Positions 14,905-30,322 of a stretch of DNA of 44,490 nt are shown piece after piece; the stretch's first letter is position 1, and the number at the start of each line of letters is the position of its first letter. Below the pieces are notes generated by a model, which ran no database searches, was not told the origin of the DNA, and saw only the letters and a list, made by a program, of their open reading frames with translations. The stretch is from an uncultured archaeon (lineage in GTDB: Archaea; Nanobdellota; Nanobdellia; Pacearchaeales; GW2011-AR1), in NCBI GenBank assembly GCA_903873955.1, contig CAIQQL010000116.1, forward strand, positions 1 to 44,490, read 5' to 3'. Position numbers and translations under genes: made by a program.

Positions 14905-15027
14905 TCTTACATTCAGTCATTAATTAACCGCATCATTTAAACAACATACTTTTCAAATATTTTTCTATACTCTCCAGACAATCATGCACCTACAATACTT
15001 CAGTTCAATCATCGAAATCATGTCAAT

Positions 15028-15065
15028 GTAACTATATAGTGACAACATAACGAAAGATTTAAATA
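15028..15065 (+). promoter_or_regulatory. Bipartite promoter-like element, copy 2 (no ORF behind it)
   Basis: 'gtaactatatagtgacaacataacgaaagatttaaata'. It shares GTAAYTAYA, the 10-mer AGTGACAACA and GAAAGRTTTAAATA with copy 1. Confidence 0.45.
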
Positions 15066-15089
15066 GTCTTTATACCTTAGTTAATTAAT

Positions 15090-15690
15090 CACCTCTTTTC
15101 CCAGAGGGGGACGCTGAGTTCATCTATTTATAGCGGACTTTGCCTCCCCTTCATGGGTTTTAATCACTTTCACCTCACTTCATACTCATCAACACCAAAG
15201 TGTTATTCCCCTCTAGAATGGGGCACGAAACACGCTTGTTTTCTCTCAAGGAGAACCCTAAAAAGTTGCTCCCTAAAAAGAATGGATGTATACCTCCCGT
15301 CTAAATTCGGGCACGAAATACACCAATGCTTGCAGCACCTGCAAGAACTCTGGGAAGAGTACACGAGAGAAAAAAGGTGTTGGTGGGTTCATACTCAACG
15401 AGGGGGGTCATTCTGATCTAGATTTCAGCACGAGACTCCCTTCAGAGGCACTTTTGCGCGGAAATCCTATCTAAACTTAGGCACGATTCGCCAAAATGCC
15501 CAGAGGTCCATCAGTAGCTGGAGGAGCGGCAAAGCCATAACCTCCTGGCCTGAATGCAGGGAAATTTTAATAATGACCCTGCAGGACACCTGGAAACTTC
15601 TTATCACTATTCAGCCAGAATCAATTAGACGAAAGAGTTAAAAGCAGGACAACTCCCTATCTTTAAGATGGAACGTTCTTTTGTTTCTAT
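15090..15690 (+). ncRNA. Candidate structured non-coding transcript (boundaries approximate)
   Basis: It lies downstream of a consensus TATA element. Only short ORFs are present, and the repeat units fall in different frames. It has several hairpins and a T-rich run at 15676..15689. I saw no match to RNase P, SRP or tRNA signatures. Confidence 0.3.
15208..15488 (+). repeat. Array of 4 (+1 looser) hairpin units: [4 nt]-TCTARAWT-[4 nt complement]-CACGA
   Basis: CCCC-TCTAGAAT-GGGG-CACGA (15208), CCCG-TCTAAATT-CGGG-CACGA (15296), CTGA-TCTAGATT-TCAG-CACGA (15413), CCTA-TCTAAACT-TAGG-CACGA (15466). A looser unit, ACTC-TGGGAA-GAGT-A-CACGA, starts at 15347. Confidence 0.7.
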
Positions 15691-15804
15691 TGGGCCCTCT
15701 CCTCGCGGTAAATCCAAGGGTGTTCGGCATCCTTTCCCCAATATTTCACGCATATATTTATACAAAAGTCCTGGAGACTCCTTCTAGAGGACGTTTAAAC
15801 TCTC

Positions 15805-16113
15805 ATGGCCTCCCCACCCCGAATACTTGAATGTAAACCTTTTGGCGAGGAGGGTAAATATCTTATGACGGTTGAATATCTTGTTCCTTCCGGTAAAATG
15901 TTTAGAAAGCCAACAATCACCAAAAGCCAGTTTTACGGTACAGGCATCCTATGGTATAATTACCCGGCAGGGTCTTGCTTACCAGAGAGACTAGAACAGA
16001 TTCTGACCGGCCTGTTTTTCGAGGCCCTTAAAAATGAACGATTCAGGAATGCCCAGGCCATAGAGCCAGGTTCAATTATTCATACACCTGTTTCTTCAGG
16101 CTACCCTGCTTAA
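15805..16113 (+). CDS. Hypothetical small protein (102 aa)
   Basis: An ORF with the TATA-like 'atatttatac' (15754..15763) 42 nt upstream. I recognise no family. Confidence 0.4.
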   Translation: MASPPRILECKPFGEEGKYLMTVEYLVPSGKMFRKPTITKSQFYGTGILWYNYPAGSCLPERLEQILTGLFFEALKNERFRNAQAIEPGSIIHTPVSSGYPA

Positions 16114-16187
16114 GCAGAGGTTTTCTGTTTTTTAGGCATCTCCTCAAAGATCAGATGCCAGAATGTCAAAAAATAGAGGCGCTTTGT

Positions 16188-16508
16188 TTACCACAGCTCA
16201 TCATGGTTTCTAATGGGCGTAGAATGTCCTGGGAAACGGGGGGCAGGTTCAATCATATCATCCAGATAACCTGGCAGGGCCTCAAGATATCTCCTTCCTT
16301 CTTCAGTTTCCAAGAGAGGGTCAAGAAACGCTTGATGCATAAATCCCTTATGCGGATCGTAGAGTAAACCCAGATGCCCAAGACCAATAGGTTTCCCAGT
16401 AAAATAAGTCAGAGTTCTCTGCATAGTCCTGATGGCATGGGCATGTGAACCTGCAAGGCCGTATCCTTCAAGTCCGCCCTCATAGTTACGGTTTAATTCG
16501 TTATCCAT
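16188..16508 (-). CDS. Hypothetical small protein (106 aa)
   Basis: The ATG at 16508 ('MDNELNRNYEGG') is preceded on the minus strand by 'gctttaaatagg' (16541..16553). I recognise no family. Confidence 0.45.
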   Translation of the reverse strand: MDNELNRNYEGGLEGYGLAGSHAHAIRTMQRTLTYFTGKPIGLGHLGLLYDPHKGFMHQAFLDPLLETEEGRRYLEALPGYLDDMIEPAPRFPGHSTPIRNHDELW

Positions 16509-16585
16509 TGTATTTTTTGGTGGAAGCACAGACCGTCATGACCCTATTTAAAGCTATTGAATTTTAACTCAGTTATTATTTTGTT

Positions 16586-16622
16586 GTAACTATAAAATAG
16601 TAAAAAAAGAAAGATTTAAATA
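16586..16622 (+). promoter_or_regulatory. Bipartite promoter-like element, copy 3 (drives the AAG-like/SNF2 operon)
   Basis: 'gtaactataaaatagtaaaaaaagaaagatttaaata'. The TATA ends 21 nt before the ATG at 16644, so the mRNA is probably leaderless. Confidence 0.5.
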
Positions 16623-16643
16623 TGAAAAAAGACTAAAAAAAAG

Positions 16644-17144
16644 ATGGATTATAAGACATTTTTTAGCAGAAAAGCTGAAGAAGTAGCGCAGGATCTTTTA
16701 GGATATTTTGCCATACGCAAAAATGATTCAGGGATATTTGCCGCAGTAATAACCGAGACCGCTGCCTATCGCGGAGGCAAGATCACCCCTGCACGACAGG
16801 GTATGCTTTACGAGCCAGGCAGGATATTCCTTATGCCTAACCGAGGTCATCTCCTGCTCAATATTGCCTGTCAGGGCGATATGCCTGCCTGTGTCGAGCT
16901 CAGAGAAATCTCATTTCCTTTCGCACTTGCCTCCCCTCCCAATTTCCCCCGTCCGCGAAGAACCATAAATGGGGCAGGGACCCTCAGCAAATTCTTAGAA
17001 CTAGACGCTCAAATGGACAATACCCTTCTTGGAGATGCATTTTCAATCTCAGACACAAAGTACAAAACCGGAATGACGTCGAGAATCGATACAACTCTGG
17101 AAGATCAAGCCGATAACCTCATCGGAGTCTACCGCTTTTCATAG
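16644..17144 (+). CDS. 3-methyladenine DNA glycosylase (AAG/MPG, PF02245-like) fold protein, probably non-catalytic
   Basis: 'FFSRKAEEVAQDLLG', 'ITETAAYRGG', 'GMLYEPGRIFLM' and 'NIACQGDMPACVELREI' run parallel to human AAG 'FF..PAV.LARAFLG', 'VETEAYLG', 'GMFMKPGTLYVY' and 'NISSQGDGACVLLRALE' (recalled from memory). Confidence 0.65.
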   Translation: MDYKTFFSRKAEEVAQDLLGYFAIRKNDSGIFAAVITETAAYRGGKITPARQGMLYEPGRIFLMPNRGHLLLNIACQGDMPACVELREISFPFALASPPNFPRPRRTINGAGTLSKFLELDAQMDNTLLGDAFSISDTKYKTGMTSRIDTTLEDQADNLIGVYRFS

Positions 17145-17155
17145 GAGGTCTTGAG

Positions 17156-19498
17156 ATGTTCTATGACCTTCGTCCCTACCAGCTTCTAGGGATAAAAAAA
17201 ATTGTTGAAGAAAGGAGAATCCTCCTCGCTGATGACATGGGCCTGGGGAAAACGGCGCAGGCCATCTCAGCAAAACACCTTATCGACCAACAGAATGGCA
17301 GCCGTGCAACATTGGTGGTATGCCCCACAGCAGTCATCCCCCATTGGCATGAAGAGATTAGGGAATGGTATTATAAAGGTAGCAAAACAAAAGTTGCGAC
17401 GGTCGGTACAAGAAACTATGCACGAGAATGTCAAAAGGCGCAAGGTGCAGATTTTGTTGTGACCTCTTATCCAGTACTTTCCTTTTTAGGGGCAAATCCG
17501 GAAAGGATCGGAGCACTAAACGAGATAGGATTTACATACGGCATCCTAGATGAAGGTCATAACACACGCAATCCTGATTCTTTACGTAGCGGTGCTTCCC
17601 GAGAGCTCTTCCATCGCATCCCTTATCTCACCATCCTTTCCGGGACTCCCATCCCCAACACCCTTGTCGACATTTATGCCCAGCTCAATCTCCTCGATCC
17701 CCAGAACTTCCCCATCAATGATGAAGATCCTGACTCCATATTGCACGAATTCTATGAGATCATCCGAAAGAAACCCCATATGATCAGAGATGTCCTCCAT
17801 TCCCGAATGCTGAGACGAACAGCAGACAAGTATCTCAACAAAAAAATGCCTAAGCTTGAACAACTAACGGTTGACAATCCCCTTACTGGTGAGCATGAGG
17901 CAGTGTATCTTGAGCTGTACCAGAATGAGGAGATCCCTCCAGCGCAAAAACTTCAGGAGCTTGTAAAAGCATCGTTAGATCCCAACCTGGTCAATGGAAG
18001 ATATCTTTCTGAACCATTAAGACAAAGGCTCGGATCGATTGCATCTTGCACCTGGGGAAAGCTTGAAGAGATTGTCCACGATGCTGTAAGTAAAAATGGT
18101 GGGAAAGTGATTGGGTTCACGGACCTTAAACGCAAGGTCATTCCTGAACTTTTAAGACGTTTTTCCAGCTATGGCGCAATTGCAATCACCGGCGATACTA
18201 ATGGAGAAGCTCCCCATGGGGAATTGAGCGACAGGGAAAAAGCCAGAATTTCTTTCCAAAGAGACAGCGCAATCAGGGCTCTTTTTGCGACTACAGTCAT
18301 GGATGAAGGAGTAGATTTGACTGCAGGGACCCATCTCATCCATATCACCTTGCCCTATATGCCCGCGACACTAGACCAACGTATAAGACGTTCGCAAAGG
18401 GCGACTGCGGAAGTAGAAAAAGAGACCGTGACCTCCATAACCCTGAGAACCACCCTAAGCAATGGATTAGAGACCATAGATGAAGGGATCAAACTACTTC
18501 TGGATGATAAAAGAAGGATCATCAGATATATCATCGAGTCTCCAGAGAAGCTTACCTTAGATGACCTTAATCTCATCAAAAATGGACATCCTGAAGACTC
18601 GCCGAGCATTTCCGGTTTTCTGAGTGAGAAACGATATATGGACTGGCATCTGGCATCACTTCGGGGCATGGGTGGAGCGCGCATCCAAGAGCAATATGAA
18701 CAACGTCCCTTCTTAGCAGAAAATCTTGCAAGAGCATACATCAAGCATTGGGAAGGATTTTACGCAGGTAATACGGCCACACTCTCGGCGCAGCTCATCA
18801 AACAGGTACTCAAAGATAGAATGAATCCACGAGTCATTGACATCGCATCTGGGCCATTCTCACTTTCCCGCGTGCTTGGTTTCCCGGTCACCAACCTTGA
18901 CCTGAATAAGTATATGCTTGAAGCAGGAAAAATCCTTGAAAATGAAGGGAAGGTCCCACGAGGAAATATCGCTTATGAGGGACTTGCAGGAGAGCTCCCA
19001 TTCAGCGACAAGGAATTTGACCTGGTAAACTGCTCACTTGCACTTCATATGACCTCGCTTAATAGAGCTGAAGGAACGAATTATTCAGATAGAGAGACCG
19101 TCCTCAGGGAAGCAAACAGGGTGATTCCTGTGGGAGGATTCTATACCTTTGCGCTTCCCCATAGCGTCATCCACCGTCAGGATATGCCTACATTTAAAGA
19201 AGGGATCAAGAGGCTCGGATTTGAAGTCCTGCCACAAACAGGGCTCTATAAAGGATCAGGAGAATCTCCTTTCAAGGTATTTTTTGGGGCATTGCGCAAA
19301 GCAGATGAGCCTCAGAATGAACCTCTTCCTGAAGAACTTTTGACCTGGAGAATGGATGCAAGAATAGGCGGAAAAAGAATAGGAGTCACCAAGAGCCTTA
19401 GGAAAGGCCTTCCAAAGAAAAAGAAGAAAGAGCAGTTCGAAAAAATAGGCACCTTTGTCCAGATAGACAGCGGGATGGAGATTGGAGGAGCATCATGA
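17156..19498 (+). CDS. SNF2-family ATPase fused to a C-terminal class I SAM-dependent methyltransferase domain
   Basis: SNF2 motifs 'LADDMGLGKTAQAI' (I), 'ILDEGHNTRN' (II), 'LSGTPIPNTLVDIYAQLNLLDP' (III), 'TTVMDEGVDL' (V) and 'DQRIRRSQR' (VI). The C-terminal ~250 aa carry 'VIDIASGPFS' (SAM motif I-like), 'FDLVNCSLALHM' and 'VIPVGGFY'. Confidence 0.85.
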   Translation: MFYDLRPYQLLGIKKIVEERRILLADDMGLGKTAQAISAKHLIDQQNGSRATLVVCPTAVIPHWHEEIREWYYKGSKTKVATVGTRNYARECQKAQGADFVVTSYPVLSFLGANPERIGALNEIGFTYGILDEGHNTRNPDSLRSGASRELFHRIPYLTILSGTPIPNTLVDIYAQLNLLDPQNFPINDEDPDSILHEFYEIIRKKPHMIRDVLHSRMLRRTADKYLNKKMPKLEQLTVDNPLTGEHEAVYLELYQNEEIPPAQKLQELVKASLDPNLVNGRYLSEPLRQRLGSIASCTWGKLEEIVHDAVSKNGGKVIGFTDLKRKVIPELLRRFSSYGAIAITGDTNGEAPHGELSDREKARISFQRDSAIRALFATTVMDEGVDLTAGTHLIHITLPYMPATLDQRIRRSQRATAEVEKETVTSITLRTTLSNGLETIDEGIKLLLDDKRRIIRYIIESPEKLTLDDLNLIKNGHPEDSPSISGFLSEKRYMDWHLASLRGMGGARIQEQYEQRPFLAENLARAYIKHWEGFYAGNTATLSAQLIKQVLKDRMNPRVIDIASGPFSLSRVLGFPVTNLDLNKYMLEAGKILENEGKVPRGNIAYEGLAGELPFSDKEFDLVNCSLALHMTSLNRAEGTNYSDRETVLREANRVIPVGGFYTFALPHSVIHRQDMPTFKEGIKRLGFEVLPQTGLYKGSGESPFKVFFGALRKADEPQNEPLPEELLTWRMDARIGGKRIGVTKSLRKGLPKKKKKEQFEKIGTFVQIDSGMEIGGAS

Positions 19499-20652
19499 AT
19501 CAAGAACAGGAGATGAGAACAAGAGCCCTCGAACTTTTAGGACAGAATGCAAACTCAGATGAAGTCATGAGAAAGACCGGCCTTAGTAAAATGCAAGTCG
19601 CCGCCTTGAAGGCGCATATCACTATGGGGACCTATTCCAAGAGGCCAGTCACGCAACCAACTCCTTCTCCTTCGCCCAGACCCTCTCTAGCGCGAGAAGA
19701 TGAAAGATATGATCTTGCAAGAAGACTTGCTGAGGAAGGAAGACAGAATGCATATATCCGCGCACAGACCGGACTTGGAAAAATGCAAGTCGCAGGATTT
19801 CTTGCAGCCAGCTCAAGAAAGAAAAGAAATCTTGAATCTAAGGCTGGAGCCACATCCTTGCATCAAACTGACCTGCTAACAACACCTGAGATTCAACCCG
19901 AAACGGATAATCGTCAGTCTATAACCAAACAAGAGGCAATTGAACTCATGACTACAAAAGGAGTTGTCCCAGCCAAGCTAGCCTATGCATACCGTATTGA
20001 TGGCGTCGCATGTTCACCTGAGCAAGTCACTGCCTGGAGGGCGCATATCACTATGGGGACCTATGCCAAGCATCCGGAGCTGCTCATTGGAAATAACCAT
20101 AAAAACGGTGGAAATGGAAAAACGATCCGCAAAAAAGAACAATTAGTTGACTTTATCGTAAAAAGCCCTGAAGTACGAGACCTGTCCGTCCTTGCACTTT
20201 GCCTTGGCGAAGATGGAAGCGAAATAGAAGGTGCGCTGCTTGAAATCTATCAAGGAAGGTTCAAGAGTCGCGAGGAATTACATTCCCTTCTTGAAGAAGC
20301 AAAGGACGATGTCGAAAGATTACTGAATGAGGGAGTGATAAGCTTAGGATATTTTATCGGCAGATACTCTTTGAGAGATAGGACGATGGCCCCTATCTTC
20401 CTTGGAGGGACCGCCTCAAATATCCCCATTGAACGAGCAACCCCTTCCCTCGAAAGGACGTTAATGAGAGTTGCAAGCGGGATCTATGACCCTCAGTTCA
20501 ATGAAGACCCTATAAAAGCCATCAAAGACTTACAAGCAAAAGCAGGGGAAGGGAAAAATCTTGCTAAAAGGATATATGAGACGTTATCCAAAGGATATCA
20601 AGAGGCCCTGGCACTCAAGGAAACCTTGAAGAGCTTTGCCCTTCGCACATAA
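19495..20652 (+). CDS. Protein with three HTH-like modules ('..MQVAALKAHITMGTY') and an uncharacterised C-terminal domain
   Basis: Its start overlaps the SNF2 gene stop (ATGA). The modules are 'GLSKMQVAALKAHITMGTYSK', 'GLGKMQVAGFLAASSRKK' and 'SPEQVTAWRAHITMGTYAK'. Confidence 0.7.
   Translation: MNQEQEMRTRALELLGQNANSDEVMRKTGLSKMQVAALKAHITMGTYSKRPVTQPTPSPSPRPSLAREDERYDLARRLAEEGRQNAYIRAQTGLGKMQVAGFLAASSRKKRNLESKAGATSLHQTDLLTTPEIQPETDNRQSITKQEAIELMTTKGVVPAKLAYAYRIDGVACSPEQVTAWRAHITMGTYAKHPELLIGNNHKNGGNGKTIRKKEQLVDFIVKSPEVRDLSVLALCLGEDGSEIEGALLEIYQGRFKSREELHSLLEEAKDDVERLLNEGVISLGYFIGRYSLRDRTMAPIFLGGTASNIPIERATPSLERTLMRVASGIYDPQFNEDPIKAIKDLQAKAGEGKNLAKRIYETLSKGYQEALALKETLKSFALRT
19611..20064 (+). 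repeat. Exact 25-nt intragenic direct repeat encoding 'AHITMGTY'
   Basis: 'ggcgcatatcactatggggacctat' occurs at 19611..19635 and at 20040..20064. Confidence 0.85.
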
Positions 20653-20678: not shown

Positions 20679-21776
20679 TCATTTCCAATAATCCCTTAAA
20701 AGCCCATCTCTAGAATCCTTTTTCGTTTCATCTTCAAGGCCATCTCCAGATTCCTCTTCAGGTTCTTTTTTTGTCCCATCCCAAAATACCGTCTCCCAAA
20801 CCCCTTTGAACTTTATCGCCCTTGCAAGCATGACACATTTTTCATCGAGATGTAGATTACGGAGTCTTCGTGTACTGCTGTCCACAACAAGCACGTTATT
20901 GTCAAGCTTTTCAGCATACTCTGTTGCAAACTGCCTTGAGGGTAGAGGGAAGGGGTTCATCTCCAGAGGAACAGTATTATCTTTTCCATTCCAGTACTTT
21001 CTTATCACCGCAAGATACGCCGCAATCTCATGGGGTCCGAACGTAAATACATCTGACCCTCTTCTCGATTGTTGGTCCTCATAACGAAGATTGTGCAGGA
21101 AGGTCATCCTCAGAGGCTCTTTTCCATCCTCATACTGGCTTTTTAGACCCCAGATTATCGCTTTTTTTTCTTTAGAGTCAGTCAATGGAACCGATTGTAA
21201 AAAAAGTCCATAACGCTGCTTGCGCTTTGTACGTGACGGGACTTTGCATAATAGTTTTGCACCCTCACTTTGGACTATGTTTGCTTCCACATAACGGTCA
21301 TCGACGGTAATCTTACCAGCTACTTGTGATGCATAAGCATAGATCTTGGTCCCCTCAATGACCGCGTCAAAGGGAACCTTTCTCCACCGCCTGTCTTTTC
21401 CTTGCACAGGAAACCAACGTAAACCAATCATCCAGATCTGTTCTTCCTTTAGGTCCCTTAATGCAACTTCTAAACTTTGCATACGATTAATCAGCGGAGT
21501 ATATGGATACTCATACGCTGCTTGTTGCCCTTGAGGTTGGTTCAATGGGAGATACCATCCATGACGATAATGCTTCCTTGAAGCGAGAGTGTCCGGTGTG
21601 TTTCTTCTAAGAAATTCAAGAGGGATGATGGGTGTCCTGACTTCAATGGCGTCAGTGTCTGGGTTAAGATCATAGATCTTCGCGACGAGATTATGGGGGG
21701 TGTATGCTGCCTTGAGTTTCAAGGTCTCTTGAATTTCCTCTGGTTCTCGTTTCTGGAAAAACGTTTTCTTTTCCAT
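20679..21776 (-). CDS. Hypothetical protein (365 aa), orphan
   Basis: A long ORF. The track start at 21797 is TTG. The ATG at 21776 ('MEKKTFFQK') sits about 25 nt downstream of the minus-strand 'ttttttatatt'. It has an acidic C-terminal tail. I recognise no family. Confidence 0.6.
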   Translation of the reverse strand: MEKKTFFQKREPEEIQETLKLKAAYTPHNLVAKIYDLNPDTDAIEVRTPIIPLEFLRRNTPDTLASRKHYRHGWYLPLNQPQGQQAAYEYPYTPLINRMQSLEVALRDLKEEQIWMIGLRWFPVQGKDRRWRKVPFDAVIEGTKIYAYASQVAGKITVDDRYVEANIVQSEGAKLLCKVPSRTKRKQRYGLFLQSVPLTDSKEKKAIIWGLKSQYEDGKEPLRMTFLHNLRYEDQQSRRGSDVFTFGPHEIAAYLAVIRKYWNGKDNTVPLEMNPFPLPSRQFATEYAEKLDNNVLVVDSSTRRLRNLHLDEKCVMLARAIKFKGVWETVFWDGTKKEPEEESGDGLEDETKKDSRDGLLRDYWK

Positions 21777-21897
21777 CCCCTCTTTAAGAAGAAACAATAT
21801 AAAAAACTATCTTTTGTTACCACTTTCTTGTTAATCTAAGCCGTATCCTGGAAATAAACTCGGCAATATTTATTAAGAAGACAGACTTATTTTTTTG

Positions 21898-22668
21898 ATG
21901 AGTATACGGTTTGGACCTGCTGGATTGGGTCCAGTAAACACTGCAAAAGAGATGCTTGAAAAACTGCATGGGCAAGGTCTCCAAGCCTGCGAGATCGCTT
22001 TCACCTATGGAGTCTATATCAAACCCGTAGATGCTGAAGAGATAGGAAAGATTGCGAAGAGCCTGGACATCGAGCTCAGCATCCACGCCCCGTATTTTGT
22101 CAATCTCAATTCAGATGATCCTAAGAAAATAGTCGCAACAAAAAAACGTATCCTTGATTGTTGCGAGATTGGAGAGAAACTAGGCGCAAAGATCGTCGTG
22201 TTCCATCCCGGCTATTACGGGAAGATGAAGGATGAGACTTATGACAACATCAAAAAAGGAATCCTTGAACTGCTAGAGGTCATTGAGAAGAAAGGATGGA
22301 AGATAAAAATCGCGCCTGAGACCATGGGAAAGATCAATGTCTTTGGAAGCATCCAGGAAATCTCCCGTCTTGCAAAGGAAACCGGATGTGCCTTCTGCAT
22401 CGACTTCGCCCATGTCCTCGCAAGGGATAAATCCGTCGATTATGCGCTCATTGAAAAGTTGTTTCCGCAAAAACAATGGCATGTCCATTTTTCAGGGATC
22501 ATCTATGGAGATAAAGGAGAAAAAGAGCATCGAATCACGGAGGAACAGGAATGGCGAGAACTCCTTAGCCATCTTCCCAAAGACAAGGAGATCCGCATCA
22601 TCAATGAGTCTCCCACGATGATTGAAGACAGCATTATGGGGCTTAAGATTTCTCAATCACTACCGTAG
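21898..22668 (+). CDS. nfo: Endonuclease IV-type AP endonuclease (xylose-isomerase-like TIM barrel)
   Basis: The pattern of metal-ligand segments is 'SIHAPY', 'VVFHPG', 'APETMG', 'CIDFAHV', 'HVHFSG' and 'INESP', in the order expected for the Nfo family. The ATG at 21898 follows the TTG at 21895. Confidence 0.65.
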   Translation: MSIRFGPAGLGPVNTAKEMLEKLHGQGLQACEIAFTYGVYIKPVDAEEIGKIAKSLDIELSIHAPYFVNLNSDDPKKIVATKKRILDCCEIGEKLGAKIVVFHPGYYGKMKDETYDNIKKGILELLEVIEKKGWKIKIAPETMGKINVFGSIQEISRLAKETGCAFCIDFAHVLARDKSVDYALIEKLFPQKQWHVHFSGIIYGDKGEKEHRITEEQEWRELLSHLPKDKEIRIINESPTMIEDSIMGLKISQSLP

Positions 22669-24407
22669 TGTGATGGTGCCAGGTTCCTCCTGTATGTTCC
22701 CATGGTCAGATGTGCTTTAAAAGCAGCTAATTGACGAGTGGAGATGTTATATGTTTGCACAATCTCTCCTTCGGAAAAAGACCCGTCAGCAATCAATTGC
22801 CCAAGCTCATGCTTTTCTTCCCTGGTTAATCTGCGCGTAGGATTAGTAGCAGGTGAGTTTCCTGCTTCGCGCCCATTCAATTCAGCTAGCGGATTTTCAA
22901 CTGGAGCTGAATCTTTTTGCAAGATAGCTCTCTCGAGAATACCTTCCTGGCAGTTATGTGAAGGGGTCCATCCTTGCCAGCGCCTCAGCCCTGCTTTAAT
23001 GCCTCCAAGTTCTCTTCCTGTAAGATGATACATCTCGAGAATCTCCGCGTCCGTCCTCCCGCTTTCAAATTCTGCACGAATTACTTCTGAAAGAGTTTGT
23101 GGCACGAGATCCTTACGGTCTGCCTTGACATATTCCAGCTCAGTCCTTAAAACCTGATTGTAACTATTGAACTTCCTATAAAACGCATCGCTGTTGCCCA
23201 TAAGATATACTCCTGGCATCCTCACTGGATCTTCATCGCTTTCTTCCTCATTTTTCAGCCGTTCCTGGTGCAGAGTGGCTGCAACCTTTCCACTAAGGAG
23301 GACAATATCGGGTTGAGGGATTTGACCATCAACCGGCGTCCGATCATTCAAGATTAGTCGCTGATAAACACAGTGGTGGTTTTCCCATCCAAAGCTGAGG
23401 TCTCTTTCTACACCTGCAAAAAAGTCAGGACGTTGCTGTAGCAGGATAAAGTCATAGAGCATCGGACTTCCGTTGTCTGAAACGTACCTTCCTTTTTCAT
23501 AGTCTGAGATAAAATAGGGTCGTTTCAGCGTCCCATTCTGCATGTATGTCAATATGCTGTTTCGCATCCCTTCATCACCTGGAAACTCCCCATCAAGAAA
23601 TATGGAAAGAAGAGTGTCAATTGCTCCTTGGGCAAAGGCAAAGAATTCCTTATGTGCTAAAGGATTTTTGATGACATCTTCCACTGGAACGTCATAATTC
23701 GACTGTTTATAGAATTCCCTGAAATACGGCGCAGCAATCAACTGCTGATAGGATTCCAGAGGGGTGTTTGATCCGGTTAAATAACGCAGTTTAAGACTGA
23801 TCATCTTGTCACGAATGGTGCCTAAATCCTCGGTGTCTTTGAGAAAATCGACAAATCTCATGTCGTTAAGGACACGCGCAGCTATCTTCTCATCTTGCCT
23901 TTCCAAAAATTTAAGCATCTCCCCTCCCTGGGTCAGAACGAAGGTATCAAGCACGTACTTACTCTGTCTCTTTTCCCCTTCACGAGATCCGTAAAAATTC
24001 GTACCGAGAACATAACGAGGACCAACCTTGTCACTGCGGGCAATCTCTCCTATGAGCAGGTCTTCTGCTGCCCCAAATTGCGACTGAAAGTCCAGGTTTA
24101 CAATATCAAAATGTTCCCGAGTCTGAGCAAAAAAGTCACGTGCATCACCTTCATAGAGATTTATACCAAGATTCTGCGCCCTGATCTGCGCCGCAACCTC
24201 AGGATTTCGTTCGATTCCATACACCCGATCCCTGCGAATTCCAAAACGATCATAGACGTCTTTAACTTCTAATGCCTCTTGTGCCGGAAAGCATACGACG
24301 CGCAAGCTTCGTCTTCGTTTGACATCAGGGTATGTCCTTTCAAGAAAGTGCAGGAACTCTTTACGATAGAGCCTTTTTGATTCAAAATCATAACTTGCCT
24401 TTTGCAT
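22653..24407 (-). CDS. Paralogue A: methyltransferase-like N-domain + two C-terminal HTH-like modules
   Basis: The ATG at 24407 ('MQKASYDF') matches the conserved paralogue N-terminus. Motifs 'LRVVCFPAQ', 'GIERNPE', 'FDIVNLDF' and 'YVSDNGSPMLYDF'. A degenerate module 'AEILEMYHLTGRELGGIKAGLRRW' precedes the terminal 'STRQLAAFKAHLTMGTYRR'. Confidence 0.7.
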   Translation of the reverse strand: MQKASYDFESKRLYRKEFLHFLERTYPDVKRRRSLRVVCFPAQEALEVKDVYDRFGIRRDRVYGIERNPEVAAQIRAQNLGINLYEGDARDFFAQTREHFDIVNLDFQSQFGAAEDLLIGEIARSDKVGPRYVLGTNFYGSREGEKRQSKYVLDTFVLTQGGEMLKFLERQDEKIAARVLNDMRFVDFLKDTEDLGTIRDKMISLKLRYLTGSNTPLESYQQLIAAPYFREFYKQSNYDVPVEDVIKNPLAHKEFFAFAQGAIDTLLSIFLDGEFPGDEGMRNSILTYMQNGTLKRPYFISDYEKGRYVSDNGSPMLYDFILLQQRPDFFAGVERDLSFGWENHHCVYQRLILNDRTPVDGQIPQPDIVLLSGKVAATLHQERLKNEEESDEDPVRMPGVYLMGNSDAFYRKFNSYNQVLRTELEYVKADRKDLVPQTLSEVIRAEFESGRTDAEILEMYHLTGRELGGIKAGLRRWQGWTPSHNCQEGILERAILQKDSAPVENPLAELNGREAGNSPATNPTRRLTREEKHELGQLIADGSFSEGEIVQTYNISTRQLAAFKAHLTMGTYRRNLAPSHYGSD

Positions 24408-25899
24408 CTTTCCCTCCAGTATATGTGCCCATGGTGTTATGTGCTTTGATGGCAGAAAGCTGTCCGCGGGTAATACTATAAGCGTCAAGAATTTCAGATT
24501 CATTGAAAGCAGGATCGCGCAACATCTGGGCAATCTCATATTTTTCTCTTTTTCCAAGCTTTCTTGGTGTGTGTCGCGAGATTATATCCCCCTCAGTCCC
24601 TTCTGAAGGAGACAGTCCATCTACTCTTTGCGCACTTGGCGATACAAGCAATCCTGGTCGTTCTGGAATGAGCTCAATGCGAGGGGCAAGAGGAAGGCGC
24701 ACAACCTGTTCCATATACTGATGAAGATATTCCATCCTTTTCACTAGTCTCTGTAGAGACCACCCTAGAGGATTTATCTTGACGTAGCAGTCATTGTTGG
24801 CATCAGCCTGTTTGAAGGAGAAAATGTCTGACAACCTCATTTTTATCCCTTCAGGGACCTGGGAAAAGCTGAAGAGATCCATCAGCATAGGGCATCCGCT
24901 ATTGCTCGTGTATTTGTATCGCTCAAAGGCGTTGTAATGATAGGACTTTTGCATTATTGAACCTTGTAAATGAAGCAAGGATCTTGCAAGGTCCGCAGGG
25001 ACCAATTGACTTAATTTATGGACCAATTGTGCATAACGGGCAGTGTAGTATCCTTGTTCATAGACCACCGGATCCTCCGAAAACTTCACATTGGCTCTGT
25101 CTGAAAGGCCGTTTAGTTTCCTAAGGAAATCCAGATCCCGTGTCGCAGGCAAATCATTTTTTACTCCTTGTATCACCGTTTCTTTATAGGGCTCATCAGA
25201 GAACATGCTTTTCCCCATAGGTCTGTTGATTGTCCCGCCCATAAATATGGTGACAAGCTCAGTCGTTATTCCATCACGAAGCCCTTCAAGATTCCCTTCC
25301 TTGCCCTGCCTATCCAACATCTGTTCAAGTTCAAGAAGTCTCTCAGCCCTAAACCGTTCGGTAGAAAAGTCATTATCGGGCCATGCTTCCATGAATTTTG
25401 CCTGACGCTGCTGATGCAAGAGCCTATTTGCAAGCAGCTTTTGCATACTCTCGCTTTCCCTTCTTCCAGAGTAGACAGTCGCAATGATTCCTTTGGGAGC
25501 AAGCAGTTGGCGTGAGGCGATATATTCGAGGGTACATGCTTCAGTGATTGTCTGCTGGCCTGTATAGTCTAGGCTGATGATATCAAACGGGGCTGGATTT
25601 GCGTGCAAAAAATACTGGTCCGCTTCTCTGCAGATTACTTCAATACCTAAGTTGGCCCTGCGCAACCGTTCAGCCTTTTCAGGGTCACGCTCGAGGCTTG
25701 TGACATGATTACGGGGTATACCTAAGACGTCACAAATCTCCTTGACTTCTATGCCTGCTTCCTCGACTGTTTCTGCTCCAGCAAAACAGAGATATCTCAG
25801 ATCCTGGACCCGTCTTTTCGGATCTTTGTTTTTCTCAGAAAAGACCATCTGTTTCATCCTTGCAAGATGCTTTGCTGGATCATTGTAGGATTTAGACAT
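24388..25899 (-). CDS. Paralogue B: methyltransferase-like N-domain + C-terminal HTH-like module
   Basis: ATG at 25899 ('MSKSYNDP'). Motifs 'LRYLCFAGA', 'SLERDPE', 'FDIISLDY', 'YTSNSGCPMLMDL' and the terminal 'TRGQLSAIKAHNTMGTYTG'. Confidence 0.7.
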   Translation of the reverse strand: MSKSYNDPAKHLARMKQMVFSEKNKDPKRRVQDLRYLCFAGAETVEEAGIEVKEICDVLGIPRNHVTSLERDPEKAERLRRANLGIEVICREADQYFLHANPAPFDIISLDYTGQQTITEACTLEYIASRQLLAPKGIIATVYSGRRESESMQKLLANRLLHQQRQAKFMEAWPDNDFSTERFRAERLLELEQMLDRQGKEGNLEGLRDGITTELVTIFMGGTINRPMGKSMFSDEPYKETVIQGVKNDLPATRDLDFLRKLNGLSDRANVKFSEDPVVYEQGYYTARYAQLVHKLSQLVPADLARSLLHLQGSIMQKSYHYNAFERYKYTSNSGCPMLMDLFSFSQVPEGIKMRLSDIFSFKQADANNDCYVKINPLGWSLQRLVKRMEYLHQYMEQVVRLPLAPRIELIPERPGLLVSPSAQRVDGLSPSEGTEGDIISRHTPRKLGKREKYEIAQMLRDPAFNESEILDAYSITRGQLSAIKAHNTMGTYTGGKDAKGKL

Positions 25900-27343
25900 G
25901 CTGCACCCCTCTGTCACGGTTGATCTTCACCCAGGCAGCAACGGAAGAGATCTTTCTTCTTTCCACTTCCCCATTAAAAAGCATGGCAATATCCTCAATT
26001 GTTGCCCCGCCCGCACGAAGCTCACGGATGACTTGTTTTTCGTCTTCTTGCAAATCCCGTTTTTTTCCAGCGAGAGGCATGGATTGGCCTGAAGTGCCCT
26101 CCAAAGGCAAAGGTCCCCCTTGGACAACCTCCAGATAGATCTTTTCTGATGCACTTGACCCTAGAAATATCCTTTTTTGCTGCTTCCCCAACTCATGGAC
26201 TTTCGTCTTTTTTTCAAAAAGGTTCAACCCCTGCTCCTTCACTTCTGCACGCAGCCTGTCACGAGACTCTTTCCGGTTTACCTCTGGCAGCACATAAATC
26301 GCAGTTTCATGCTTCCTCACCAGGAAGGAGCTTTCAAGCCTTTGTACAATACGAGCATGATTGTCAAGATAGAAGATGTCAAATAACATCGGCGTCCCGC
26401 TGTTGCTTACGTAACCGTACGATTCCAGGGACTCGACAAGATACGGCTTTTGATGGGCTATTAAAAATGCAGAAGCCAAGGGGAAGTCAAGACCTGCGTT
26501 GATCAGCGCTTCCCAGCGGGAAATATCTTCATTGATCCTAAACATCCTATGACGCATGACGTTCTCTTCCCTGTTCCTGGTAAACTTGATAGAGATGCAG
26601 GCTTTGTCCCTTTCATCACCAACTCTGGAAACCACATCAAGAAAATGCGCAGAGGACTCATCAAACCCGCCAAAACAGTCATAGAACTCCCTGCCCAGAT
26701 TTGCCCGACCCAGAGTGAAGGTGCCTGTAAGGATAGACCGTAAAACCTGTTCGCGGTCTTCTCTTAAATCGAACGATTGATTGAGCTGCGCAACTCTTGT
26801 CAGGGCAGGCTCATAATTCGTCAAGAGTTCCTGTAAAGACACTCCTCCTTTTACCATTGCACTATTGCATTGCAGCAGATCCTGCGCATCCTCATTTTCT
26901 CTTCGGGCCATGAAATTTGTCGCAATAATCCCTCGATTATCCAATAAGCCATCACTTGCGATAAGCTCCAACGCATAATGGCGCTCGGGAGAGAAGTAGG
27001 ATGTGTAGTCCAGATTAAAGACCGTCCACTTTCGTCCCTTTGACCGTGCAGTCTTCAAGACCTCCAGGTCTTTGGCGTGGATCAGCTCTATCCCTAAACC
27101 TGCAGCACACAGGCGATCATACTTTTCACGGTCCAGCTCCACTCCAGTGATATTTTCCCGAGGTATTCCTAAAGCATCGTAATATGCAAGTTCCAGTGCA
27201 ACTTCGCCATCCTTTTGGGCTCCGGGAAAACAAAATATCCGCACATCCTTCGGCTTTCGATAGGAGAGAATGTAATCTCTAATCCCGTTCTGCAGTTTTA
27301 CTCGGGTGATATCCTTTACTGTGTCATTATAACTTTTATCCAT
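25892..27343 (-). CDS. Paralogue C: methyltransferase-like N-domain + degenerate C-terminal HTH-like module
   Basis: ATG at 27343 ('MDKSYNDT'). Motifs 'VRIFCFPGA', 'GVELDRE', 'WTVFNLDY', 'YVSNSGTPMLFDI' and the terminal 'IEDIAMLFNGEVERRKISSVAAWVKINRDRG'. Confidence 0.7.
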   Translation of the reverse strand: MDKSYNDTVKDITRVKLQNGIRDYILSYRKPKDVRIFCFPGAQKDGEVALELAYYDALGIPRENITGVELDREKYDRLCAAGLGIELIHAKDLEVLKTARSKGRKWTVFNLDYTSYFSPERHYALELIASDGLLDNRGIIATNFMARRENEDAQDLLQCNSAMVKGGVSLQELLTNYEPALTRVAQLNQSFDLREDREQVLRSILTGTFTLGRANLGREFYDCFGGFDESSAHFLDVVSRVGDERDKACISIKFTRNREENVMRHRMFRINEDISRWEALINAGLDFPLASAFLIAHQKPYLVESLESYGYVSNSGTPMLFDIFYLDNHARIVQRLESSFLVRKHETAIYVLPEVNRKESRDRLRAEVKEQGLNLFEKKTKVHELGKQQKRIFLGSSASEKIYLEVVQGGPLPLEGTSGQSMPLAGKKRDLQEDEKQVIRELRAGGATIEDIAMLFNGEVERRKISSVAAWVKINRDRGVQHV

Positions 27344-28751
27344 GTTCTTCCCTCCGTCGATATGTCCCCATTGTCTGATGTGCCTTGAATGCTGCCAATT
27401 GCATCTTGGTAAACCCAGTATAACACTGTGCAATCTCTGCAGGAGTGAATCCTGAACTAAGCAGGTCAAGTACCTGGGCCTTGGAGAGTGTCTCCTTATT
27501 TCCAGATCCGGGCTGAGGAGATAAACCTGAAAGAGTATGATCTGCCGGGGAACCTAGGACCTTATTTTCTCCATAGGCCGAACCGAGATTCTCACGTGGC
27601 GCAAGGCTATTCCCGAAACATCTGTAACGGCAATTACAAAAGTCAGAAATAAGCCCAATGGCCTCTTTTTCAAGAGAGGGATGATACTTGCTTACTTTCC
27701 AGTCCAAGTTCTGAGGATCGATGGAAAGGCGGAAGGTCCTGGAAAGGTCCAGATGCTTGACATAGTTGATATCGACCAGCATAGCCGAACCCTTGTCCCC
27801 TATATAGCGAAGCCTTCTCTGATCAGCAACAAAATAGGACTGCAGGGGAGTGTAATAGAGCAACTCTGCTGCCAGCGTCAAGGTCTGCAGGCTGACATTG
27901 CCCTCTGGAAAAAGGTCGACATTTATGGCTTCACGTAATTTATCCTTCAGAAAAGGCATGGCATAAAAAGTATCGATTGTCTCCTGACGGGAAGGAAGTC
28001 CTCCACTGCCCAATTGATAATTGTCCTTTGCCCCTCCGATAATATCCTGTCCAACAAAATACGTGCGTGCAATCTTTGCAGTCTCATTACCAGGAGCCCT
28101 TCTGAGCTGCTCATCTTGCCACACCAGGAAAGCATCAAGAAGATCGCGGTCTTTCAAAAAATAAGGATGAATCTGCCGGTTGTGAATTCCATCAATCAAG
28201 ATTGAGCAGATATTGCGGGAAAGCAAATTTGAACGGTCCTTGATCGTACCCGCGCCTCCCTCTTCCTCCTCGCAGAAATCCCTATGTGCCGCCTCAAACC
28301 AGGACTTGGCATACCCGCTTTCCCTCATTCCCAAGTACCAGGTGGCCAATATCCCTTTCTCACCCAACAGCTGTCTTCCCGCAATTGTTCGCAATGCATT
28401 GCGCTGTTCAAACCCAAACGGAGCAAAGCCATCAATGTTGATGATGTCAAAAGTCTCGGAAGTGGTCTCAAGAAATTCATCAATAGAAACAGGCTTTGGA
28501 GGAAGCCGTACTCCCCAGCCCTGGGACTGTATTCGCCCATAGGTTTGAGGGTCATTTTCCAGACAGAGAATATTACCGCGGGGAACCCCCAGACGATCCC
28601 ATACCTGCTCAAGCTCCAGGGATTGATGCCCGAGAAGCGTCAAGACACGTAGGCCTTTTCTTTGCGAAGGCTTAGGATAGAGATTGGTCGTAAATCCTGC
28701 CAGGATCCCTCTTGCCAATGTTTTCGTGCTATAATTATAGGTCTCTTTCAT
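27336..28751 (-). CDS. Paralogue D: methyltransferase-like N-domain + C-terminal HTH-like module
   Basis: ATG at 28751 ('MKETYNYS'). Motifs 'LRVLTLLGH', 'CLENDPQ', 'FDIINIDGFAPFG' (reminiscent of Trm1 'IDLDPFGSP'), 'YIGDKGSAMLVDI' and the terminal 'TKMQLAAFKAHQTMGTYRR'. Confidence 0.7.
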   Translation of the reverse strand: MKETYNYSTKTLARGILAGFTTNLYPKPSQRKGLRVLTLLGHQSLELEQVWDRLGVPRGNILCLENDPQTYGRIQSQGWGVRLPPKPVSIDEFLETTSETFDIINIDGFAPFGFEQRNALRTIAGRQLLGEKGILATWYLGMRESGYAKSWFEAAHRDFCEEEEGGAGTIKDRSNLLSRNICSILIDGIHNRQIHPYFLKDRDLLDAFLVWQDEQLRRAPGNETAKIARTYFVGQDIIGGAKDNYQLGSGGLPSRQETIDTFYAMPFLKDKLREAINVDLFPEGNVSLQTLTLAAELLYYTPLQSYFVADQRRLRYIGDKGSAMLVDINYVKHLDLSRTFRLSIDPQNLDWKVSKYHPSLEKEAIGLISDFCNCRYRCFGNSLAPRENLGSAYGENKVLGSPADHTLSGLSPQPGSGNKETLSKAQVLDLLSSGFTPAEIAQCYTGFTKMQLAAFKAHQTMGTYRRREEHG

Positions 28752-28942
28752 CGCGCCTTCTTCTCCTCCTCTATAAATATTAAACGATCTTTTGCCTTGA
28801 GCGGGCTAATCCTGCATAAGTTGAGCACTTCTAGCATCTTCTGCAAAATCTCATCATAGGTCTCCCGGCTATGTGTCCGCAGGTGTTCCAGCCTTTCCTT
28901 GGTATCCAAAGAGAGCTTTATCGTCGTTATCTTAGAGTCCAT
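28748..28942 (-). CDS. Ribbon-helix-helix (CopG/VapB-antitoxin-like) small DNA-binding protein, first gene of the paralogue operon
   Basis: 'TTIKLSLDTKERLEHLRTHSRETYDEILQKMLE' fits the beta-strand/helix/helix pattern of archaeal RHH proteins. Its stop overlaps the start of paralogue D (ATGA). Confidence 0.6.
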   Translation of the reverse strand: MDSKITTIKLSLDTKERLEHLRTHSRETYDEILQKMLEVLNLCRISPLKAKDRLIFIEEEKKAR

Positions 28943-28945
28943 ATT

Positions 28946-28970
28946 GGTATACCGCGGTATACCTTTATAA
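28946..28970 (-). promoter_or_regulatory. Perfect 18-bp palindrome (candidate operator) between the TATA box and the RHH start
   Basis: GGTATACCGCGGTATACC at 28946..28963. The minus-strand 'ttataaa' at 28964..28970 lies immediately upstream, and the ATG at 28942 is 3 nt downstream of the palindrome. Confidence 0.5.
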
Positions 28971-29065
28971 TCTTTTTGCTACTTTCTAATAGTATCTTTT
29001 TTGTTGTTACCACAAAGTTTATAAATAACCGATTTCTTGGTAAATTAACTAAATTTACTACGAAC

Positions 29066-30322
29066 ATGAAAACCAATAAAATTTTGGCTTCGCTTGTTGC
29101 AATGTTTGCTCTTGCGGTACTCACCTTGAGTATGGCAAGTGCAGGACTCGGAACACAGCCAGTATCGGGTAATGGTGTAGTAATTACTTCTGTGGAGTCA
29201 GGTCAAATCGATCTCTACAACAGTAATTATAGACTTTCTAGCTTTGCTGGAAACACTATCCCGGTTACTATAACGCTGCAATCCGATATAAACGCGAGCA
29301 ATGTCAGAATTAAGACCTGGTTAGCTGGTTCGAGCGGTCTTTCTACCTCTTCAAACAGGTTCAACCTGCTTATCGGTAGCGCCTACACGACGCAAGTCAG
29401 TGTAAACATGCCTTCTGACATCGACCCTTCTGAGCAAATTGAGCTCGAGGTTGTTGTTGAAAGCGAAAATGGCGGTATCTTAGCTGAGCAGAGATTACCT
29501 ATTTCCGTCCAAAGAGATGCATATGCTATGCAGATCCTTGACGCAATTATGGACAGTTCAGTCAAAGCAGGAGATAATCTTGCTGTTGATGTTGTCCTGA
29601 AGAATCGAGGTATGGAATTTGCTCAAGACACTTTTGTGACGGTTAAAATACCTGCACTCAATGTCGTGCAAAAAGCATATCTTGGAGACCTCTCACCTGT
29701 TGACCAAGCCGACCCAAATTACCAGGACGCAGTTGAGGGAAGGGCAGTTATTAACTTACCTTCTGATGCCAAGCCCGGCGTTTATAACGTCGAGATTGAA
29801 GCAGACACCTATAACGGCGATTCCACGGCGACCATCACCAAACGATTGATGGTTGTGGGTGCGAGTGCGGACTCATTGGCTGTTTCACCTGCCACCAGCA
29901 TGACTTTTGCTGCGGGCGATAGTGGAGCATACAGTATGACCCTCGTTAATTCTGGAAGCAAGGTACAATTGTACTATGTCTCTATCGATGCCCCACAAGG
30001 ACTTTCGGTAAAAGCAGACAATAGTATTATTGCGATCCCTGCTGGCTCAAGTAAGACTGTCCAGTTAACAGCTACTTCCGAAAAGGAAGGCAGCTATGAC
30101 TTTTCAGTCACTATCCAAGCAAACGGCGACATTGTAAAGAAACAAGACTTCACTGCAAAAGTTGAAGGCACAAAGACGAACAACACGTTCGGCAGTGGTA
30201 GCACGACAGTTTTACTGACCGTTATCCTTGCCATAGTCTTCGTTGTCCTTCTTGTTGTATTGATTGTATTGTTAACAAGAAAGCCTGAGAAGAGCCGAGA
30301 ATTCGGAGAAAGCTACTACTAA
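29066..30322 (+). CDS. Cell-surface (S-layer/CARDB-like) protein with signal peptide and C-terminal TM anchor
   Basis: ATG at 29066 gives 'MKTNKILASLVAMFALAVLTLSMASA'. Repeated beta-rich modules such as 'VKAGDNLAVDVVLKNRG' are present, and there is a C-terminal anchor 'VLLTVILAIVFVVLLVVLIVLLTRK'. The TATA-like 'tttataaata' is about 40 nt upstream. Confidence 0.7.
   Translation: MKTNKILASLVAMFALAVLTLSMASAGLGTQPVSGNGVVITSVESGQIDLYNSNYRLSSFAGNTIPVTITLQSDINASNVRIKTWLAGSSGLSTSSNRFNLLIGSAYTTQVSVNMPSDIDPSEQIELEVVVESENGGILAEQRLPISVQRDAYAMQILDAIMDSSVKAGDNLAVDVVLKNRGMEFAQDTFVTVKIPALNVVQKAYLGDLSPVDQADPNYQDAVEGRAVINLPSDAKPGVYNVEIEADTYNGDSTATITKRLMVVGASADSLAVSPATSMTFAAGDSGAYSMTLVNSGSKVQLYYVSIDAPQGLSVKADNSIIAIPAGSSKTVQLTATSEKEGSYDFSVTIQANGDIVKKQDFTAKVEGTKTNNTFGSGSTTVLLTVILAIVFVVLLVVLIVLLTRKPEKSREFGESYY

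Follow-up and report, generated by a model that had tools for sequence, protein, structure and literature searches.

Divergent paralogues of the class I methyltransferase fold, with tethered DUF433-like modules, in an operon of an uncultured Pacearchaeales archaeon

The window analysed here is the whole 44,490-nucleotide contig CAIQQL010000116.1 (assembly GCA_903873955.1) of an uncultured archaeon of the Pacearchaeales. On its minus strand, in positions 22653-28751, lie four related genes, referred to as A, B, C and D, whose products are the focus of this study. They belong to a new, sizeable and lineage-restricted protein family within a very well known fold, that of the class I (Rossmann-fold) S-adenosylmethionine (SAM)-dependent methyltransferases. 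The architecture of the family is unusual, as an insert is placed between strands 5 and 6 of the core and one to three DUF433-like modules are tethered to it. Furthermore, the family recurs as arrays of two to six copies of diverged subfamilies.

An original prediction, made from the DNA letters, had described four tandem paralogues at this locus; all four genes are on the minus strand, and their coordinates and N-termini are exactly as it gave them. A hidden Markov model (HMM) of the family scores all four at E-values from 1e-91 to 1e-132, far past chance. Consecutive genes overlap by 8 (D/C), 8 (C/B) and 20 nucleotides (B/A) and are therefore translationally coupled, and a GGAGG-type Shine-Dalgarno sequence precedes the ATG of each. 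The operon, which had been thought to begin with D, does contain the four genes but starts one gene earlier, at a short open reading frame (ORF) matching the Pfam model PF24434 (E 1.1e-8, 34.8 bits; cut-off 25); the locus is thus a five-gene operon of the order DUF7557, D, C, B, A (Table 1). Judging by its ITTIKLS..TK.RL..L pattern, the DUF7557 protein is ribbon-helix-helix-like, and homologues of it are encoded upstream of a family gene in L003/L011, L029 and L026 (L and P numbers are our labels for loci and proteins, respectively). The TATA-like box ATTATAAA is a putative promoter of the operon, which, given the typical geometry of archaeal promoters, would make the first gene leaderless. 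At the opposite end, the 3' end of A overlaps a convergent apurinic/apyrimidinic (AP) endonuclease gene by 16 nucleotides.

The four proteins have diverged widely, with pairwise identities of 26-30% in a four-way alignment and of 24-29% (58-105 bits) in BLAST comparisons among the four neighbours. Conservation was counted in an alignment of 75 diverse family members, for which the residue numbering of B is used throughout. K10, R14, Y330, M338 and the motif IV aspartate D111 are invariant (75/75); E51, R63, the glutamate E70 that ends strand 2, and R147 and E148, an R-E pair after strand 5, are each found in 74/75, and D57 and the distal-block aspartate D341 in 73/75. The glycine of the motif I loop CFPGAE (G41) is present in 70/75. 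All motif blocks listed in the original prediction are present and aligned, except that an aspartate it had regarded as conserved, about 25 residues after strand 2, is only semi-conserved. K10, E51, E70, D111, R147, Y330 and M338 are retained in A-D and in every tabulated array member of other loci, while R14, E148 and D341 undergo only rare, mostly conservative changes there. As aligned, about a dozen charged or aromatic residues are strictly conserved in every paralogue. Paralogue A, already noted as lacking the strand-1 glycine, indeed has alanine at this position, yet its orthologues in other genomes keep the glycine. The suggestion that some copies are non-catalytic partners finds no support here, as the invariant residues are, almost without exception, kept in all copies of all tabulated arrays.

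The fold was assessed with AlphaFold2 models of B, built from a 17-sequence alignment, and of D, built from 75 sequences, which reached a predicted local distance difference test score (pLDDT) of 83.7 and 83.3 and a predicted template modelling (TM) score of 0.77 and 0.82, respectively. Both models have the same layout, in which strands and helices alternate through strands 1-5 and a C-terminal antiparallel hairpin is formed by strands 6 and 7. In the model of B, a helix (8-24) precedes strands 36-38, 66-69, 87-89, 105-111 and 133-144, which are joined by helices; the hairpin strands occupy residues 320-331 and 337-347, and the tail contains helices 450-461, 467-474 and 478-489. The distal 'Y.S..G.PML.D' block, suspected earlier to belong to the same fold, is in the models the strand 6-7 hairpin and there completes the seven-stranded class I methyltransferase sheet. 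In the models, the variable insert takes the place of the helix that normally links strands 5 and 6; it is helical throughout and measures 150-185 amino acids rather than the roughly 200 first estimated. Its calculated isoelectric point (pI) is acidic in A-D (4.9-6.0), whereas that of the hairpin region is basic (9.3) and that of the C-terminal helix-turn-helix (HTH) module near neutral (median 6.8).

Foldseek comparison of model B with the PDB returned 47 matches at E <= 0.001, all of them class I methyltransferases, including PKMT1/2, the RsmD-like structures 2fpo, 2ift, 2fhp and 2esr, Trm1 (3axs), TrmN, TrmR and PmtA. For model D, 13 matches passed the same threshold, all being methyltransferase-fold proteins or large assemblies containing one; the 50 PDB matches listed for this model are likewise all class I methyltransferase-fold proteins or assemblies with one, and spermidine synthases are present among them. 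The query-normalised TM-scores are low (~0.2) because only the Rossmann core superposes. Among viral models, the best match is an uncharacterised Hyperionvirus protein (353 columns, root-mean-square deviation [rmsd] 4.4 Å), followed by giant-virus chromo-domain proteins. The predicted structures of B and D, together with the profile comparison described below, thereby bear out the methyltransferase-like Rossmann N-domain of the original prediction and show the A-D family to have the class I SAM-dependent methyltransferase fold.

By sequence, the family is considerably harder to place. Neither A-D nor any of 75 family members scanned singly reached the threshold of a Pfam or NCBIfam model. Recurrent sub-threshold Pfam matches were to DUF433 (19/75), HTH_23 and HTH_7 (7/75 each), Spermine_synth (4/75) and the RsmD model Cons_hypoth95 (3/75, best E 0.0034), with no recurrent TRM match among the 25 families listed for the 75 members; weak NCBIfam matches were to aminopropyltransferase models (2 members each) and to an RsmD model (1 member, E 0.034). 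A PDB sequence search with a profile of the four paralogues alone gave only noise. With the 75-sequence profile, the single match at E <1 was HI0767, of the RsmD family (E 0.0056), and no Trm1 chain appeared at E <= 10. Alignment of profiles by hhalign against RsmD-family sequences reached a probability of 90.7% (E 1.2e-6, 115 columns), with an RsmD profile that was narrow, the search with the HI0767 segment having yielded only fragmentary close relatives. This alignment pairs CFPGAE..GEEALE with CFAGSGSLGFEALS, GLExD...A..L..aN with FLELDKTVANQLKKN (GLExD falling on FLELD) and FDIISLDY with FDVVFLDPPF. The invariant motif IV aspartate is thus aligned to the D of DPPF, the rest of which is absent and replaced by (S/N)LDY(T/K)G. 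As judged from these comparisons, the family is distantly homologous to the RsmD/Trm1-type 'amino' methyltransferases and stands outside every curated family. Literature searches found no description of it, and no family annotation with a defined function was found; the sole source name encountered was the generic NCBI label 'class I SAM-dependent methyltransferase' of one homologue.

The tail of the proteins, predicted earlier to be HTH-like behind a low-complexity linker, indeed forms three helices after a disordered segment in the models. The signature of these terminal helices is ..G.(S/T)P.EIA..Y.GF(T/S)K.QLAAFKAH(Y)(V/I)TMG. Of 155 family representatives, 106 carry the module once, 31 twice and 3 three times, and long family members mostly owe their length to extra HTH modules; the ~300-residue extensions of P0066, P0069, P0079 and P0013 gave no match. 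Stand-alone homologues of the module measure 50-92 amino acids, two of which (P0156 and P0157) carry PF04255 (DUF433) as a precomputed annotation. Within the family, the DUF433 matches stay under the 23.6-bit cut-off (best E 0.0028), and the DUF433 structure 2ga1 is matched only at E 1.8. DUF433 (COG2442) is the HTH of DNA-binding antitoxins associated with PIN toxins (PMC2701414). The tail of C, previously described as a degenerate HTH, does fail the module HMM, scoring -0.7 bits versus 53-88 for A, B and D, which were included in the training of this HMM while C was not; it can nevertheless be aligned, and comparable tails with 'KAW.KMN' are found among B-type orthologues. In the metagenomic protein P0085 (1002 amino acids), the family domain and two HTH modules are followed at the C-terminus by a radical SAM domain (PA0069/Rv2578c type), either through a real fusion or as an artefact of gene calling.

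Table 1. Features of the operon, of paralogue B and of the neighbouring SNF2 gene cluster in the window
Feature	Position	Strand	Description
TATA-like box ATTATAAA	28964..28971	(-)	~25 nt before the ATG of the DUF7557 gene; taken straight from the DNA letters
DUF7557 gene	28748..28942	(-)	64 aa, upstream of D; its stop (TGA) overlaps the D start: ATGA
Paralogue D	27336..28751	(-)	471 aa; most divergent copy; strand-1 loop TLLGHQ, motif IV NIDGF
Paralogue C	25892..27343	(-)	483 aa; canonical catalytic motifs CFPGAQ, NLDYTS; C-terminal module without KAHxTMG signature
Paralogue B	24388..25899	(-)	503 aa; orthologous to P0002-P0009, the 'canonical' subfamily, which is widespread
Paralogue A	22653..24407	(-)	584 aa; motif I Gly replaced by Ala; weak extra module 448-472 and full terminal module 526-573
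B residues 1-149	25453..25899	(-)	N-terminal helix (K10, R14) and strands 1-5, as modelled; CFAGAE, LERD (E70), SLDY (D111)
B residues 150-316	24952..25452	(-)	variable insert, predicted to be all-helical and to separate strands 5 and 6; poorly conserved apart from R208
B residues 317-400	24700..24951	(-)	predicted strand 6-7 hairpin with ERYKYTSNSGCPMLMD (Y330, M338, D341), then two short strands and a helix
B residues 401-447	24559..24699	(-)	includes the disordered linker; pLDDT <50 at 415-444
B residues 448-495	24415..24558	(-)	predicted three-helix DUF433-like HTH module ending in QLSAIKAHNTMGTY
MPG glycosylase gene	16644-17144		upstream of the SNF2 fusion
SNF2-methyltransferase fusion	17156-19498	(+)	SNF2-family helicase with C-terminal Methyltransf_11/UbiE-type domain
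Module-repeat protein gene	19495..20652	(+)	385 aa; KAHITMGTY module in two strong copies and a weak one; overlaps the stop of the SNF2 fusion

An exhaustive profile search collected 1047 cluster representatives (50% identity) at E <= 0.001, of which 455 reach E <= 1e-30. Scanning one genome per GTDB species gave 24 loci, 20 of them labelled as Woesearchaeota, Pacearchaeota, Nanoarchaeota or unclassified archaeon; the other four are labelled as uncultured Methanosarcinales (three) or as a bacterium (one), and we suspect these to be mis-binned metagenome-assembled genomes. No relatives of the family were found in the phage, plasmid and IMG/VR collections. Most loci hold a single copy. Arrays occur in the window and in L025 (four copies each), in L006/L009 (six), and in L007/L008 and L010 (two each). 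Outside the window, the best relative of A is a gene of L006 (36% identity, 348 bits), that of B reaches 41% (335 bits), those of C are P0058 and a gene of L020 (41%, 266 bits), and those of D have 34-40% identity (up to 298 bits); for B, C and D together, the top matches span 35-41% identity and 250-335 bits. As each paralogue is closer to proteins of other genomes than to its neighbours, the array assembles four old subfamilies and did not arise by recent tandem duplication; the earlier term 'tandem paralogues' is to be taken as one of arrangement only. A B-type gene followed by an A-type gene is also seen in L006 and L010, and the L020 gene, the closest locus relative of C, stands alone within the ~4-10 kb of flank.

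Two further observations concern individual loci. In L018 (10001-12548, Pacearchaeota), a family gene is interrupted behind strand 5 by the 337-residue ORF of an IS630/Tc1-like transposase (10620-11633), with both halves still open, and the family gene is thus not indispensable everywhere. Genes of 423 and 425 amino acids beside P0005 in L003 were considered as hidden paralogues, but the family HMM does not detect them at E <10.

The surroundings of the operon are chromosomal, with genes for IMPDH, an ABC transporter, an ADP-forming acyl-CoA synthetase, a Toprim protein, SMC/Rad50 and NT5C. Synteny with close relatives extends to both sides, as the Ig-like surface protein, NT5C and SMC genes recur in L003, L011 and L029 and the AP endonuclease gene in L003 and L029. 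Across the loci compared, the recurrent neighbours are housekeeping genes such as those for CDC48, the proteasome ATPase and a class I tRNA synthetase. In L015 (3384-7396), L020 (7400-11335) and L024, the neighbour of the family gene is a class I aminoacyl-tRNA synthetase gene (Val/Ile/Leu type), with an overlap of the two genes in L015; this weak hint at a tRNA connection is seen only in these three related genomes. The ORF of the Ig-like surface protein (28871-30322, plus strand) probably starts at an internal methionine, that of MKTNKILASLVAMFALAVL (~29066), which heads a signal-peptide-like segment; this start would leave a divergent intergenic region of ~120 bp common to the Ig-like and DUF7557 genes.

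On the other side of the AP endonuclease gene lies a trio of genes which encode the MPG glycosylase, the SNF2-methyltransferase fusion and a protein with repeated copies of the tail module (Table 1). The module-repeat gene starts before the stop codon of the fusion gene and is thus translationally coupled to it. The same trio stands beside family arrays in L006/L009 and L010, and the module-repeat gene is possibly associated with the family. Between two modules of this gene, a 49-nucleotide DNA repeat (19593-19641 and 20022-20070) is 90% identical amid otherwise diverged modules, which suggests gene conversion or strong constraint; a weaker, 34-nucleotide version (79%) is found at the 3' ends of A, B and D. 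When repeated DNA motifs were considered as target sites of the HTH, the only repeats found were module coding sequence, in the paralogue genes and in the module-repeat gene. Between the module-repeat and AP endonuclease genes, a minus-strand gene (20679-21797) encodes a 372-residue protein with no Pfam or PADLOC match, a homologue of which (54% identity) lies in L010 away from the family genes there. The 1.74-kb interval between the Toprim and MPG genes (14905-16643; GC content 42%) contains no ORF of more than 113 codons; Rfam gives no match for it even at E <= 1, and the related loci show no similarity to it at either the nucleotide or the translated level.

The fold, the collinear RsmD-like motifs and the dozen residues strictly kept in every copy make active SAM-dependent methyltransferases the best reading of A-D. 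Taken as a whole, the explanation that A-D are a set of such enzymes, with nucleic-acid N-methylation as the best guess at their activity, is one that we hold with about as much confidence as doubt. SAM would be bound via the strand-1 loop (CFPGAE), the glutamate of strand 2 and the motif IV aspartate, and the methyl group would be transferred to a nitrogen nucleophile, most likely the exocyclic amino group of an RNA or DNA base, by analogy with the RsmD/Trm1/Trm11 group. Selection of the target may lie with the variable helical insert, in which case four paralogues would serve four sites or substrates. The tethered HTH module, which is common to A-D and the protein encoded next to the SNF2 fusion, could dock A-D on a common partner, and the DUF7557 protein would probably act as the regulator of the operon.

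Several findings weigh against this explanation. The strand-1 loop is not a classical GxGxG, and the replacement of (D/N/S)PP(Y/F) by (S/N)LDY(T/K)G implies that the target chemistry may differ. An acidic insert (pI about 5-6) and a near-neutral HTH module (6.8) are unusual for surfaces that bind nucleic acids. Moreover, the top full-length Foldseek matches are the protein-lysine methyltransferases PKMT1/2, weak aminopropyltransferase matches recur, and all-against-all clustering of the flanking ORFs of 27 loci revealed no universal neighbour beyond the synteny of close relatives and none that points to a substrate. Because the PP(F/Y) is missing, the insert is acidic and the module neutral, and both PKMT and spermidine synthases are matched, a protein substrate or another SAM-dependent chemistry has to be allowed for.

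Were A-D to methylate proteins, for instance lysines or N-termini of chromatin or ribosomal proteins, the tail would be a SANT-like docking element and the array a set of 'writers' with different targets. The matches of PKMT1/2 of Rickettsia, which head the PDB list over the longest alignments, and of giant-virus chromo-domain proteins among the viral structures are in line with this view, as are the charge of insert and module and the repetition of the module in a protein coupled to the SNF2-methyltransferase fusion, given that the trio accompanies arrays in three diverged genomes. We nevertheless consider it unlikely, if worth serious attention, as the PKMT alignments match only in the Rossmann core, the sole sequence-level relative is the family of the rRNA enzyme RsmD and the SNF2 trio is absent from most family loci. 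A bolder proposal, which we regard as a long shot, would unite the SNF2 fusion, the module-repeat protein and A-D in a nanoarchaeal system for marking chromatin or nucleic acids. The KAHxTMG module would then be a common docking device that gathers a varying number (one to six) of 'writer' methyltransferases, which differ in their helical specificity inserts, on one platform, and would be likened to the SANT/Myb repeats found next to eukaryotic SNF2 remodelers.

A hetero-oligomer, in which A or D would be non-catalytic scaffolds in the manner of Trm6/Trm61 or METTL3/METTL14, might be expected from the translational coupling of the four genes, the adjacency of B-type and A-type genes in the window, L006 and L010, the missing strand-1 glycine of A and the TLLGHQ and NIDGF motifs of D. 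It becomes improbable in view of the invariant residues, which all four copies and every tabulated array member keep, and of the A-type orthologues that do carry the glycine. Most fetched loci are single-copy within the fetched flanks (further copies may lie elsewhere in these genomes) and represent more than one subfamily, and single copies of differing subfamilies argue against an obligate complex. It has also to be asked whether A-D methylate DNA as part of a system of restriction-modification, defence or epigenetic marking, with the HTH as the reader of DNA and the insert as the target-recognition domain. DNA-repair genes are indeed nearby (MPG glycosylase, AP endonuclease, SNF2 helicase), and the family member P0085 apparently continues into a radical SAM domain of a group (PA0069/Rv2578c) related to DNA-repair enzymes resembling spore photoproduct lyase. 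The tail, furthermore, resembles the HTH type of antitoxins that bind DNA (DUF433 = COG2442; PMC2701414). However, no [DNS]PP[FYWH] motif, a pattern that includes the DPPY type, occurs in the reading frames of A-D, the module is not basic, and the DNA-methylase models of Pfam (N6_N4_Mtase, MethyltransfD12, N6_Mtase) match neither A-D nor appear among the family matches listed. No nuclease partner was found, PADLOC reports nothing for A-D, the module-repeat protein or the 372-residue neighbour and only generic SNF2 matches for the helicase, and phages, plasmids and viral contigs hold no relatives. Inheritance appears vertical and syntenic among housekeeping neighbours, and because of this non-mobile context a role in restriction-modification or defence is unlikely; as a whole, we rate the DNA-methyltransferase explanation as decidedly improbable. 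The idea that the fold serves aminopropyl or aminocarboxypropyl transfer from (decarboxylated) SAM, or SAM sensing by a regulator, seems to us very improbable indeed. It would account for the non-classical strand-1 loop, for the spermidine synthases among the Foldseek matches of model D and for the recurrent weak matches to spermidine synthase models in Pfam and NCBIfam, but genuine RsmD fragments receive the same weak Spermine_synth label, which thus reflects the common FDV..LD segment. Neither model B nor model D is predicted to have the N-terminal beta domain of spermidine synthases, and the dozen invariant residues suggest catalysis over sensing.

A large part of the proteome of Woesearchaeota and Pacearchaeota, archaea which are abundant, uncultured and small in genome size, lacks an assigned function. 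A family of more than 1000 clusters which is covered by no curated model, and of which reduced genomes sometimes keep as many as six diverged copies, suggests a modification activity that is particular to the lineage and of importance to its cells. Its definition provides a candidate entry for Pfam or NCBIfam and names residues to mutate (in B, E70, D111, R147/E148, Y330, M338 and D341), and it offers a testable link between the number of paralogues and the number of modified RNA, DNA or protein sites. If the HTH module does tie A-D to the SNF2-methyltransferase fusion, a new type of archaeal marking system would be at hand; if there is no such link, the methyltransferase superfamily gains a member family that is useful but ordinary.

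Among known systems, RsmD (PF03602 Cons_hypoth95, TIGR00095; PDB 2fpo, 2ift), which forms m2G966 of 16S rRNA, is the only relative at the level of sequence. It has the class I fold in common with the family and is collinear with it in an N-terminal helix with D..K, in CF(A/P)G..EAL(S/E), in (L)E.D...A..L..N and in FD(V/I)..LD. RsmD, however, has DPPF where the family has (S/N)LDY(T/K)G, and it measures ~200 amino acids, in contrast to the 450-600 of the family, which include the insert of 150-185 residues and the C-terminal linker and HTH module. The resemblance to Trm1 (tRNA m2,2G26; PF02005), to which the original prediction had pointed, is real but secondary: 3axs ranks 18th for model B, albeit with the top query-normalised TM-score among the PDB matches listed (0.25, 381 columns). 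Trm1 has a comparable two-part architecture with a large non-Rossmann domain, and its motifs D-L-D-P-F-G and G-I-L..T-A-T-D resemble S-L-D-Y-T-G and G-I-L-A-T-N of the family. The Trm1 motif contains Pro-Phe, which SLDYTG lacks, and the extra domain is C-terminal in Trm1, whereas it is an insert in the family. PKMT1 and PKMT2 of Rickettsia (PDB 5dnk, 5doo), which Foldseek ranks first by E-value for model B (3e-5 to 9e-5), are similar in size and likewise build several domains on a class I core, but only this core superposes (TM-score ~0.2, rmsd 17-20 Å), and the sequences are not similar (~10% identity). The tail module, finally, is a three-helix unit of ~45 amino acids like the homeodomain-like HTH of DUF433 (PF04255, COG2442; PDB 2ga1); while DUF433 is an antitoxin encoded beside a PIN toxin, the module of the family is a tethered tail of one to three copies with its own signature, QLAAFKAH(Y)(V/I)TMG.

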